Assembly: GCA_048213135.1 (NCBI GenBank)
Contig: PS015069.1
Span: forward strand, 91,198 to 146,896
Source: Reclinomonas americana ATCC 50394
Taxonomy: Eukaryota
DNA length: 55,699 nt
Direction of reading: 5' to 3'
Shown: piece after piece, positions 36,976-43,617 of the stretch
Position numbering within the stretch: position 1 is the stretch's first letter
Layout of the letters: each line of letters begins with the position of its first letter
The notes under the pieces: model-generated
What the model saw: the letters and a program-made list of their open reading frames with translations, nothing else
The model's database searches: none
Told to the model about the DNA's origin: nothing
Made by a program: the position numbers and the translations under genes

Positions 36976-39900
36976 CTATCTGTGCGCCTGTGCTTGCTTG
37001 CGAAGTACCTGTGCTACACGCTGGTGGTTCCTGGATTCTGCTAGCTGCAGCGCTGTCATGCCGTCCTTGTCGGTCATGCTGAGCAGCGATTCCGGTTGTC
37101 GCGCCAACAAGCAAATCATATCCACGGATTCGGGACTGCCGCGGAGAACGGCTTCGTGCAGCGGCGTGCGGCCGGCGGCATTGCGCACCGACACTGCTTC
37201 GTCGCTAATACCACGCCGTTCGAGCTCGCCGCAGAGCCATCGCACGACTTCGCGACAGGACACGGCCAGGTGCAAGCACGTGCTGCCGTCTTCATCGCGC
37301 TCCGTCAGCGCCTCGGCAGCTGCCTCGGCGGCCAGGAAGCGTGCAGTGCCTTCGTGTCCGCCCATGCATGCCATGGCGAGTGGCGATCGACCGTGGCAGT
37401 CGCGCACGGCGAGCAGTGTCGGCATTTGCCGCACAATCCACGACACCAGCGATTGGTGACCATTGAGAGCGGCGTAGTGCAGTCCCGTGGAGCCGTCCTT
37501 GGCGGTGAGTGCCAGCAGCGACGGATCGCGCAAGGCCAGTGAGCGAGCAAGCTGCGTGGAAGATTAGCGATTGGTGATGCACATTGGATTAGAGCACGGC
37601 GCACGGAACCTCTTCGAATCCGTGCAGACAGTTCCGGTGAAAGTGCTGCGTTCAACAATCGATTGAGGATCCTGGAGAGCAGTGGGTACAGACACAGACA
37701 CAGACACAGGCCGTACCGTGCGTCCCAGTGGATCCACGTCGCGGAGTTGATTCGGCCGCATTGTAGAGAGCCACTCTGCCAGTTCACTCTGCCACAGCGA
37801 CACACCGTCAATACACGGACGGGACACCACCACCACCTGATAATGCCCACTCACCTGTCCGACGGCATAATACAGCGGTGCGCGCCCGAATCGATCTCGC
37901 ATTTCCACCAAATCCGGCAACTTCTCCACCAGCCACCGGCACAGCTCCACCGAGCTGCCGACATGGGCTGCCGTGTGCAACACTGTGCGTCCCTGCCGGT
38001 CACGCATCGACAGCAGCGCCGGCAATTCGTTCGCTAATGACTCGATCAGTCGCCGAGGAGCTCCGTCACGAATGGCCACATGCAGTGGCGTCTGTCCGGA
38101 TCGACTTACGCTCTGCGTGTGGCGTCTGTCAGTGCGCGAACACCTTGCGCAACGAATGAAAAAGAGGTACGCACCAAGATCAGCCGCTCGCCACCAACAT
38201 CGGTCAACCATCGCATCATGGCCTCGTCGCCCGTGCGCGCCGCCACGTGTGCCAACGTGAAACTGTTGTCCTCGCGCAGCAAGATCGCCTCTGGCCACAA
38301 CTCGATGGCCACCTGCAGACAACGCAGGTGGCCGAGGCGTGCGAGTGCATGCACCACCGTGCATTGCCGCTCCGCCGGTGTGCGCAACAGTAATGGTTGC
38401 ACGAATGCCGGCCGGTCACGCTCAATGTCGCCCCACCCGTCGAACGTGGCCAGCGCATGCGGTGCCAGGTCGCCCAGCCACGCCACATACGCCTGGTACC
38501 GCACATCATCGGGCCGATCACACCACGGCTGGATGCGCAGTATGAGCGACGCGACAGCCTTGTGTGCCAGTGATGCGTCTTTGGCTGCGTACGACGGTGC
38601 ATGAGACGGGGGACGAGAGGAAGGAAGAGCATTGCGTGATCCATACCAGTTGGATGCTCGCCCGCCAGATCCGACAGCCACGACAGCGGTTTGAGAATGG
38701 CCGCGATAGCAGCCTGCACTGTCGCACGCGGCGCACCGCGCGTCTGCAACGCGTCCGCCAACATCGATGCCGCCAGGAACACCAGCTCGTCCAGAGTGCG
38801 GTCGTGCGGGGCATCCGCATACACACCCATCTGACCAAATACGGCTCCCGCACGACACGCAATCACTTGACTCAACAACTGGAACGGTGTCGGCATGGAG
38901 GTGAGCTGTCGCAGCTCCTGTGGTGCAGTAGCAGCAACAGCACACAGTCAGTTTGTGAGCGGATTCACTCTACTTCTAAAGTACATGGCACGCAACAGGC
39001 ACTGAATCCCACAAGGCGCACAGCTGGTACCACATGGCCCAGGCGAGTGCCTCCAGCACGTCAACAGACCGCGCAGCACAGCGGTAGCTCACATTCTCCG
39101 ACGACATGAGCCACTCGGGAAGCGAGCGATGAAAGAACTCGTACGTCGGCGAGGCCGACTGTCGTGTCTGTGCCACCTTGAGCCATGGTTCGAGTGCTGC
39201 CGCGGTGCGAGGACGATGAGTATCGCTGCGGGCGAGTGCCTGCAGTTTGTGGCGAAACGCAACAGCTCAACAGGCGATCAAAATCGGCGGCCGAGGTGGC
39301 CGGCCGCAAGTATCGCATCACGTCGTACAATTCGCGGTGCGACAGTGGAGTGGGGGTGCACAACACGGCCTCGAGTATCGGTCGCACGTCATCAAAGGGA
39401 ATGCGCGTGTCACCTGGGACGATACCCGTCATTCCGGTCATTCCAGGCAGCAGACTTGCCGTCATTGTCGACCGTGTGTCGCCGACTGCCGAGGATGGTC
39501 GCTGTCGAAGGGGCGAGGAATGTCAGCCACAGCGACACTAGACGACATGAGACTGCAAGTGCACGCAACTGAGCCGGTCTCGGTGCTCGTCTTCACGGCC
39601 TCGTTGACGATGCGTCGGCAGGCTGCAACTCGGCACATGAGATTCTTCACGTGCGACGTGTCAACAGGTGAAACACAGACACTTGCCGTTGATCTCGCCG
39701 CGCTTGAACGACAAATGCTCGGTGAGCCAGGCAATGAAATCGGCGCGCACCTCTGCATCCTCCAGATCCAGTGGTCTGCACGGTTCTCAGTTTTTGTAGG
39801 AAGGAGAGAGTGCGAAACAAACAAGGAGAGCGCACCTCCATCCCTCTTCCTGCATGGCCACACGGAGCTGCTCGCATCGCTCGGCAGGCAGTGAGTCTGC

Positions 39901-42900: not shown

Positions 42901-43617
42901 CGTGTACACCGCCACAATCTGCTCATTCATCGTGAACGATCGCTGANNNNNNNNNNNNNNNNNNNNAAGAAGAAGAAGAAGAAGAAGAAGAAGAAGAAGA
43001 AGAAGAAGAAGAAGAAGAAGAAGAAGAAGAAGAAGAAGAAGAAGAAGAAGAGACATGACAAACCAATGAGAATGGAGTCGGGCTCACGTCGCACACCGAC
43101 CAACTTGACGATATTCGGATGCATCAATTGCCGCAACAATGAAATCTCCTCTGCAATCGCATTCATCGATGCCGCCTGGGTGAGCACAGAGAGTGAGAGG
43201 AGAGTGTGAGAGGTTGTGCGGGCAAGTATCATCATGTCACGAGTAACGTTTTGCACAGCTAATCGTTTCACAGCAATGATATCGCCTGCGCGGTCGCCGG
43301 AGATGACCATGGCGCGGAACACATCGCCTTTTGTGTGAGAGAAGAGCGAAAGAGAGAGTGAGAGAGTGACAATGAGTAAAAGAGTCATCAATCAAAAAGT
43401 GTGCGCACCGAAAGCTCCGCGTCCAAGACGATCCTTGACTGTGCGTGTGCGTGTGTGTGAGAAGAGAGAGCACAAGGAGAGAGTGCGTGTAGAGAGTGCG
43501 AGGTCACGCGACGTTTACCCCGATTTCTTTCGCGTAACTTTCCAGTTGCAAGTCGCCTGACTCGAGCACTGTGGCGTCGAGCATTGCTGCGCCATCAGTG
43601 ACACTGGTGTCTCCCAT
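36976..43617 (-). CDS. MAP3K/STE-like kinase - NACHT/STAND NTPase - ankyrin-repeat fusion (NLR-like), about 25 exons
   Basis: Kinase: LGRGAFG, IAVK, HRDLKPKN, DFG, YAAPE, ADIWSLG, RPTAAELLSH. This splices in frame to FVGRDWLF, Walker A GDPGIGKT, Walker B LIVVDALDE, LPSWMRIVCTTR, LPRGLKGIY and FFHRSLPEWL, then multiple ankyrin repeats (GQTPLHVA, GRTVLHTAA, GSTGLHYAA, GRTPLHEA). Confidence 0.85.
42967..43050 (+). repeat. (AAG)n microsatellite in a kinase intron next to a 20-N gap
   Basis: Directly visible in the sequence. Confidence 0.95.

Follow-up and report, generated by a model that had tools for sequence, protein, structure and literature searches.

TANC and ANKRD50 are animal scaffold proteins and are not known to be immune receptors. 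Both are linked to disease, and we know of no output of their nucleoside triphosphatase (NTPase) domain; to our knowledge, animals are known to use the switch clade that they represent only in scaffolds that lack an effector. One source (PMC5533708) presents TANC as a STAND NTPase that bears ankyrin and tetratricopeptide repeats (TPRs), and mentions no kinase in its available part. Layouts in which a kinase accompanies a nucleotide-binding oligomerisation domain (NOD) are on record elsewhere. In fungi, PKinase is one of the N-terminal domain classes of NOD-like receptors (NLRs) in the survey by Dyrka et al. (2014, PMC4986451); kinase NLRs of the Sordariales are rare, numbering 12, of which 9 carry the kinase at the C-terminus, where it is read as an integrated decoy (PMC12258605), and as far as the available parts of these two sources show, no fungal kinase NLR has been functionally characterised. 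Kinase-NLRs are also described in the moss Physcomitrella (PMC7145615), and the effector domains reported for bacterial NACHT proteins include protein kinase (bioRxiv 10.1101/2022.07.19.500537). Here we analyze a 55,699-nt stretch of the Reclinomonas americana ATCC 50394 genome (assembly GCA_048213135.1, contig PS015069.1, positions 91,198 to 146,896; hereafter the window, with coordinates counted from its first nucleotide), in which a minus-strand locus encodes a protein kinase, a TANC/ANKRD50-type STAND NTPase and ankyrin repeats, likely within a single gene.

Along the minus strand from 43833 to 36976, stop-to-stop open reading frames (ORFs) show the signatures first of a protein kinase, then of a P-loop, a TANC-type winged helix and ankyrin repeats. 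A chain of GT-AG introns, with the exon model read by coordinates, joins these frames into 30 exons spanning positions 36976-43671 of the minus strand. Four exons with a total of 355 nt (118 residues), all bounded by GT..AG and free of stops, precede an assembly gap, and 26 exons with a total of 4002 nt follow it, yielding 1333 codons without an internal stop through 25 introns up to a TAG at 36978-36976. The protein encoded in the assembly comprises at least 1451 residues (118 + 1333), plus a kinase exon that is absent from it. Every sequence item listed in a previous sequence-only reading of this locus was found on the minus strand at the place given there, and the proposed layout, running from kinase to STAND NTPase, winged helix and ankyrin repeats, is supported. 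The gene end placed at 43617 by that reading does coincide with an in-frame ATG, but it is the second of two start candidates, a further in-frame ATG lying upstream at 43671.

The modelled introns form a cohesive set. All 28 follow the GT..AG rule, 27 of them end in CAG and 24 measure 58-75 nt, with the four remaining introns being longer (81, 100, 175 and 303 nt). Donor triplets comprise GTG (13), GTT (10), GTA (3) and GTC (2), with GTTGCG occurring five times and GTGAGC three times, and within this gene an intron interrupts approximately every 150 coding nucleotides. Codon bias peaks in the frame of the model, relative to the other two frames, in 24 of the 26 post-gap exons. The first donor (GTTACG, at 43538) is the shakiest boundary in the kinase N-lobe portion, and the least certain exon boundaries of the whole model are those within 40075-39473, where alternative splice choices are present.

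To place the NTPase, we generated a local hidden Markov model (HMM) from the N-terminal NTPase-lid-winged-helix regions of 107 of 120 listed ANKRD50-type proteins (the 13 others were dropped, their span being too short) and searched it against the spliced model and 500 shuffles of that model. The spliced model scored 88.7 bits (E 1.9e-29, Z=1), whereas the best of the shuffles reached 1.1 bits. The first aligned domain (hmm 10-303, 60.0 bits) begins exactly at FVGRDW, which is profile position 10, and proceeds colinearly across exon junctions. It aligns the Walker A motif GDPGIGKT (exon 41330-41226, which P-loop Pfam families also match) to GGpGsGkt in the profile, the Walker B motif LIVVDALDE (exon 40849-40618) to lllvdsides and the strand LPSWMRIVCTTR (exon 40548-40359) to fPkWlllvcsaR, and it extends into a lid portion in exon 40291-40143. 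The profile resumes at the winged helix (hmm 307-378, i-E 5.9e-10) and ends in FFHRSLPEWL. Between profile positions 303 and 307, approximately 155 residues (exons 40075-39473) are without an ANKRD50 counterpart; the three exons that encode them, 40075-39836, 39775-39681 and 39622-39473, present codon-usage scores of 0.22, 0.74 and 0.08.

Single-exon scans against Pfam agree with this placement at lower strength. Two stretches of the NPHP3_N profile (positions 23-43 and 122-147) were matched, with scores of 12.9 and 12.4 bits that stay below its cut-off of 24.8, and HTH_TANC1 was matched colinearly in two consecutive exons, at positions 7-52 (E 2e-4) and 63-82 (E 0.085), with a score of 21.6 bits for a cut-off of 27; AAA_lid_TANC1 found no match in these scans. 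A protein atlas also led toward NPHP3_N, as a lead only. The NACHT family (PF05729) matched the Walker A exon only, across 21 residues with an E-value of 0.012, and an ANKRD50-like comparison protein itself matched NACHT at only 5.7e-5. The label 'NACHT-like' is fair, short of a strict Pfam NACHT assignment. By profile similarity, the domain is a TANC/ANKRD50/NPHP3-type STAND NTPase, as had been guessed from its motifs, with the Walker A and B motifs intact and the HTH_TANC1 and ANKRD50 profiles agreeing on the winged helix that contains FFHRSLPEWL.

The NTPase core, lid and winged helix are thus homologous to, and colinear with, those of ANKRD50, TANC1-2 and rolling pebbles, and ankyrin repeats follow the winged helix here as they do in ANKRD50. 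The gene differs from these proteins in the insertion between lid and winged helix, in lacking TPRs, in per-exon Pfam scores that fall under the gathering cut-offs of the TANC families and in its N-terminal kinase, a domain carried by none of the 120 listed ANKRD50-type proteins. Its intron structure and the lack of any close relative also point to a non-animal source.

In the spliced frame, the kinase presents the motifs GRGAFG, IIAVKRL (containing the catalytic Lys), AIAEEISLL (containing the alphaC Glu), IHRDLKPKN, DFG, AAPE and DIWSLG, and it ends in ..ELLSHQF..PRLP at 41779. The G-loop GRGAFG, the R of HRD and the D of DFG are completed only across introns, which lends support to those splice junctions. 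The Pfam Pkinase family (PF00069) matched the ORF at 42322-42945 with 37.9 bits, against a cut-off of 31.7. Profile positions 43-76 were matched before the assembly gap and positions 92-122 after it, with positions 77-91 unmatched on both flanks; this jump indicates that some 15 positions, corresponding to subdomain V and the hinge, are absent from the assembly. Both the motifs and the profile positions confirm the earlier description of a kinase with intact Lys, HRD and DFG that has lost subdomain V at a 20-N gap. Judging by these residues, the encoded Ser/Thr kinase looks catalytically competent.

Its assignment to the MAP3K group can be made tentatively. Among solved structures, the best relatives of the catalytic-loop ORF were MAP3K5/ASK1, which occupied the top 13 rows with E-values of about 1e-6 (best 1.3e-6), and we take the DFGxSKxL and DIWSLG motifs of this kinase to resemble those of MAP3Ks. 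The best solved relative of the N-lobe ORF, however, was Snf1, with a weak E-value of 0.009, and two other kinase ORFs had no match among solved structures. The label 'MAP3K-like' proposed from the sequence is therefore supported in part, by the catalytic-loop ORF.

The question of whether kinase and NTPase belong to one gene hinges on the junction between them. The donor at 41778 leads in phase 0 through exons 41707-41594 and 41518-41390 into the Walker A exon, and the chain linking the kinase end via two exons to FVGRDWLF and the NTPase is present as it had been described. We scored codon usage across this junction with a model trained on the other exons of the gene against its other introns, leaving the junction pieces out of training. 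Read in the frame that the kinase hands on, the first linker exon scored 0.51 bits per codon, where in-frame windows of the gene average 0.503; of 6075 windows with matched composition, taken out of frame or from the antisense strand, 0.9% attained this value, and of 84 intron frames none did. The three junction introns (K, L and M), also left out of training, were codon-negative in all frames, as were the spacers on either side of the gene, beyond its stop codon and ahead of its start. Across the junction, the score alternates as the model predicts, with frame 0 positive in exons and all frames negative in introns. The second linker exon scored 0.39 overall and 0.57 from its internal ATG onward. 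The sole Met of the first linker exon lies four codons before its end, so that the coding signal of this exon, probably a disordered linker between domains, must stem from translation begun upstream in the kinase. Provided that translation enters this exon from the kinase, no more than 25-80 nt lie between the end of the kinase frame and any potential NTPase start codon, too short an interval for an independent promoter.

Donor and acceptor scores amount to 4.93 and 5.12 bits for intron K, 6.11 and 3.86 bits for intron L and 5.94 and 9.76 bits for intron M, relative to leave-one-out medians of 3.86 (donor) and 4.95 (acceptor) bits for the other 25 introns; five of the six sites lie above these medians and the L acceptor lies below. 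If intron K were left unspliced, the kinase frame would reach a stop after seven more codons, and if intron L were left unspliced the frame would stop at 41545-41543. Intron K also has an alternative in-phase donor at 41769 (GTTTCT).

The same DNA could hold two same-strand neighbors, a stand-alone kinase followed by an ANKRD50-like NTPase-ankyrin gene, with the in-frame chain between them being coincidental. The kinase would then stop seven codons into intron K or at 41545-41543, the NTPase would start at the ATG at 41464 (or at 41518), and the locus would amount to an ordinary kinase beside an ANKRD50-like gene. A number of observations favor this arrangement and weigh against a single gene. 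Dinucleotide shuffles of positions 41778-41465 were examined for a stop-free GT..AG chain, with introns of 55-80 nt, leading from the kinase to FVGRDW. An in-frame chain of any kind was present in 942 of 1000 shuffles, one with CAG acceptors in 599, one with both sites at or above 0 bits in 461 and one with both sites at or above 3 bits still in 157; we consequently rejected the splice chain as stand-alone evidence for one gene, since most shuffles yield one too. ANKRD50-type proteins begin approximately ten residues before the FVGRxW motif, and the ATG at 41464, in a good context (purine at -3, G at +4), lies four codons upstream of FVGRDW and could serve as the start codon of an independent NTPase-ankyrin gene. 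Over its 5' 18 codons, the second linker exon scores just 0.18. The genome is compact, with a divergent WD40 gene within about 200 nt of the start and another ORF within about 200-300 nt past the stop, and neighboring genes in the window sit only a few hundred nucleotides apart. Our searches recovered no relative with the same fusion, the kinase being absent, as noted, from all listed ANKRD50-type proteins. The codon model was trained on exons that we had modelled ourselves, and shuffled sequence represents true intergenic DNA imperfectly. Finally, the kinase is incomplete in the assembly, and an intact protein hence cannot be asserted.

Against two genes stands, in the first place, the coding signal of the first linker exon, which is at full strength in the kinase frame (in the 0.9% tail of the comparison windows) and belongs to an exon that cannot open a second gene; once intron K is spliced, the interval between kinase stop and NTPase start shrinks to the 25-80 nt given above. 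Introns K and L resemble the other introns of the gene in length, site scores and composition, and the true flanking spacers, in contrast to this exon, are codon-negative in all frames. When chain and coding score were combined in a single test, none of 3000 shuffles matched the coding score of the observed chain (38.1 bits, against a shuffle maximum of 32.7 bits). These statistics favor one frame across the junction. On the strength of codon score, intron likeness and the combined shuffle test, we consider it likely that a single minus-strand gene encodes the kinase, the STAND NTPase and the ankyrin repeats, in line with the earlier single-gene proposal, and unlikely that two genes are present.

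A degenerating or mis-assembled locus that makes no full-length protein, its frame breaks being concealed in the gap and in the uncertain exons of the middle part, would account for the absence of subdomain V from the assembly and for the weak coding scores (0.22 and 0.08) and alternative boundaries within 40075-39473, and it would not be out of place in a window with seven runs of N. It would, however, have to accommodate 1333 stop-free codons through 25 introns, catalytic and nucleotide-binding motifs that are all intact, top codon bias for the frame of the model in 24 of 26 post-gap exons and gap flanks that are colinear parts of one kinase profile. We judge this explanation to be highly improbable. 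The features of the gene are compiled in Table 1.

Table 1. Positions in the window of the exons, junction introns and domains of the kinase-NTPase-ankyrin locus, and of the assembly gap within it.
Feature	Position	Strand	Content
Kinase N-lobe	43671-43539, 43438-43409, 43327-43248, 43175-43064	minus	G-loop, catalytic Lys, alphaC Glu
(TTC)28 + 20-N gap	42967-43051 + 42947-42966	strandless	Expected site of kinase subdomain V
Kinase C-lobe, exons 1-4 of seven	42942-42849, 42545-42483, 42416-42336, 42273-42228	minus	
Kinase C-lobe, exons 5-7 of seven	42159-42119, 42052-41937, 41877-41779	minus	
Kinase C-lobe, whole	41779-42942	minus	HRDLKPKN, DFG, APE, DIWSLG, end ..ELLSHQF..PRLP
Junction intron K	41708-41778	minus	71 nt, GTGAGC..CAG, phase 0
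Linker exon 1	41594-41707	minus	38 codons, Ser/Pro/Gly-rich
Junction intron L	41519-41593	minus	75 nt, GTGCGT..CAG, phase 0
Linker exon 2, start of NTPase module	41390-41518	minus	FVGRDWLF; internal ATG 41464
Junction intron M	41331-41389	minus	59 nt
STAND NTPase core and lid, six exons	40143-41330	minus	Colinear with ANKRD50 profile 10-303
Lid end and insertion	40075-39836, 39775-39681, 39622-39473	minus	About 155 residues, no ANKRD50 counterpart
TANC-type winged helix	39413-39264, 39196-39093	minus	FFHRSLPEWL in second exon
Spacer, winged helix to ankyrin	38352-38917 (exon 38917-38647 and first part of 38584-38175)	minus	
Ankyrin array, five exons	Rest of 38584-38175, 38112-37855, 37788-37717, 37645-37610, 37551-36976	minus	

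The region between winged helix and ankyrin array had no Pfam match and presents codon scores of 0.43 and 0.48. The array itself comprises about 11 repeats, counted by eye, one of which is completed by the 36-nt micro-exon 37645-37610. The last exon matched Ank_2 with an E-value of 6e-38, and upstream ORFs matched Ank_2 (1.5e-9) and Ank_4 (4e-4), with a further Ank_4 match (E 1.3e-4) in the per-exon scan; the long C-terminal ankyrin array seen from the sequence is thereby confirmed. A sequence search for relatives of the last ankyrin exon returned generic ankyrin proteins only. Continuation of the gene into the downstream ORF at 35982-36794 was considered and rejected, given the stop codon, a spacer that is codon-negative in all frames and the lack of any Pfam match for that ORF even at E 1.

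Set against the described kinase-bearing systems, the locus shares its layout with several and its switch with none of them. Fungal PKinase NLRs unite an effector kinase, a NOD and repeats in one polypeptide, as modelled here, but their NODs are annotated as NACHT or NB-ARC, whereas that of this gene is of the TANC type. In moss kinase-NLRs and bacterial NACHT kinases an N-terminal kinase is likewise fused to a STAND switch, a likeness by layout only; the moss proteins have NB-ARC and leucine-rich repeats (LRRs) and the bacterial NACHT clades have other sensors, unlike this gene. The view that the architecture is uncharacterised can accordingly be kept in part: fungal, moss and bacterial kinase-NOD-repeat proteins are on record, none of which is known to have been worked out mechanistically, but not with this type of switch, and no kinase fused to a TANC/NPHP3-type NTPase was found in a non-exhaustive literature search.

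The Walker B exon, searched against 1.84 billion representative proteins, gave four matches, all spurious, to bacterial or axonemal proteins of repetitive sequence whose Pfam domains are unrelated, and metagenome scans with this exon and with a 136-residue exon recovered no relative. An 1847-aa protein combining kinase and ankyrin repeats was examined as a possible further example of this layout and discarded: it is without a Walker A motif, its middle region is left unaligned by BLASTP, which aligns the model with its kinase and ankyrin parts only, and it gave no match to the NTPase region.

The arrangement of the domains suggests how such a protein might work. By analogy with STAND/NLR proteins, the NTPase would be held shut by the region of spacer and ankyrin repeats until a partner binds, after which nucleotide could be exchanged and the protein could oligomerise; by analogy with ASK1-type kinases, the clustered N-terminal kinases would then trans-autophosphorylate and signal downstream. 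ASK1 is activated within an oligomer through trans-autophosphorylation; in LRRK2 and DAPK1, a kinase shares the polypeptide with ankyrin repeats and with a P-loop domain that has a regulatory role. ASK1/MAP3K5, the best solved relative of the catalytic-loop exon, is without an NTPase, and the ROCO proteins LRRK2 and DAPK1 carry a Roc GTPase and COR, not a STAND ATPase, in a domain order that differs from that of this gene. We regard ASK1 and the ROCO kinases as mechanistic analogues, not as family members. That the mechanism is drawn from such analogies counts against the reading as a whole. Taken jointly, one gene in which a kinase and a linker precede a TANC-type switch and ankyrin repeats, acting through an NTP-gated kinase mechanism that we infer, is the best explanation of the locus and a moderately probable one. 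A fusion of this kind to an active-looking kinase would offer a readable output, kinase activity, for probing the TANC-type switch, and it would make the spectrum of NLR-like layouts broader, within a lineage of eukaryotes nearly devoid of relatives in the databases.

The same single gene might alternatively serve as a dedicated receptor in innate immunity or non-self recognition, its ankyrin repeats sensing a foreign molecule and its kinase triggering a defence or death response. NLRs show the same tripartite order of effector, NOD and repeats. In one survey of fungal NLRs (PMC4986451), ankyrin leads the annotated C-terminal repeats, with 42% of the annotated sequences, and PKinase is a listed N-terminal class; another report counts protein kinases among the bacterial NACHT defence effectors (bioRxiv 10.1101/2022.07.19.500537). 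No paralogue of the gene is present within the 55,699-nt window, which argues against such a role. The nearest relatives of the NTPase, ANKRD50 and TANC, argue in the same sense, being animal scaffold proteins that are not known as immune receptors. We consider a dedicated immune receptor to be rather unlikely and a role as a conserved signalling switch at least as likely.

The most far-reaching version of these proposals is an NLR-like receptor of a protist whose TANC/ANKRD50-type switch acts as the direct gate of a MAP3K-like kinase; in this full form, it is decidedly unlikely. If it were true, the TANC/ANKRD50 STAND clade would have begun as, or would be able to act as, a ligand-triggered kinase activated by oligomerisation, a relay from sensor to mitogen-activated protein kinase (MAPK) cascade would be contained in one polypeptide, and a eukaryote of deep branching and poor sampling might employ the protein for innate immunity or to recognise non-self.

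Several other features of the window were recorded. A WD40 beta-propeller gene lies divergently at 43732-45253 on the plus strand, where no more than about 200 nt separate the kinase ATG from the first WD repeat that can be made out, and matches THOC3, Prp19 and WDR5-type propellers in Pfam (E 8e-18 to 1e-5). A word-based search with one of its exons recovered a single weak relative, from which the lineage seems to be poorly represented in databases. On the other side of the locus, the minus-strand region 35654-36794 contains a same-strand ORF that begins about 200-300 nt past the stop codon. It holds poly-Asn and poly-Asp runs, including (AAC)n at 36545-36592, and its C-terminal part resembles ribonuclease-inhibitor-type LRRs by eye, with no Pfam match even at E 1.

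Scans of the whole window for tRNAs and Rfam families found nothing. The window ranges mostly between 52 and 63% G+C per kb, with three low-GC stretches, and contains long open frames at 12439-14346 (635 codons) and 22743-24578 (611 codons) on the plus strand, both without a Pfam match, which may or may not be genes, the DNA being this G+C-rich. The assembly is a gapped draft, with seven N runs (8602-8621, 17427-17881, 26702-26721, 28264-28414, 30224-30751, 42947-42966 and 48399-48551), three of exactly 20 and four of 151-528 nt. Beyond the WD40 gene, the plus-strand ORF at 49188-49943 has a weak match to the RINT-1/TIP-1 family (E 2.8e-7), and that at 45947-47368 matches FAD_binding_1 (E 7e-32), of the diflavin reductase/cytochrome P450 reductase type.

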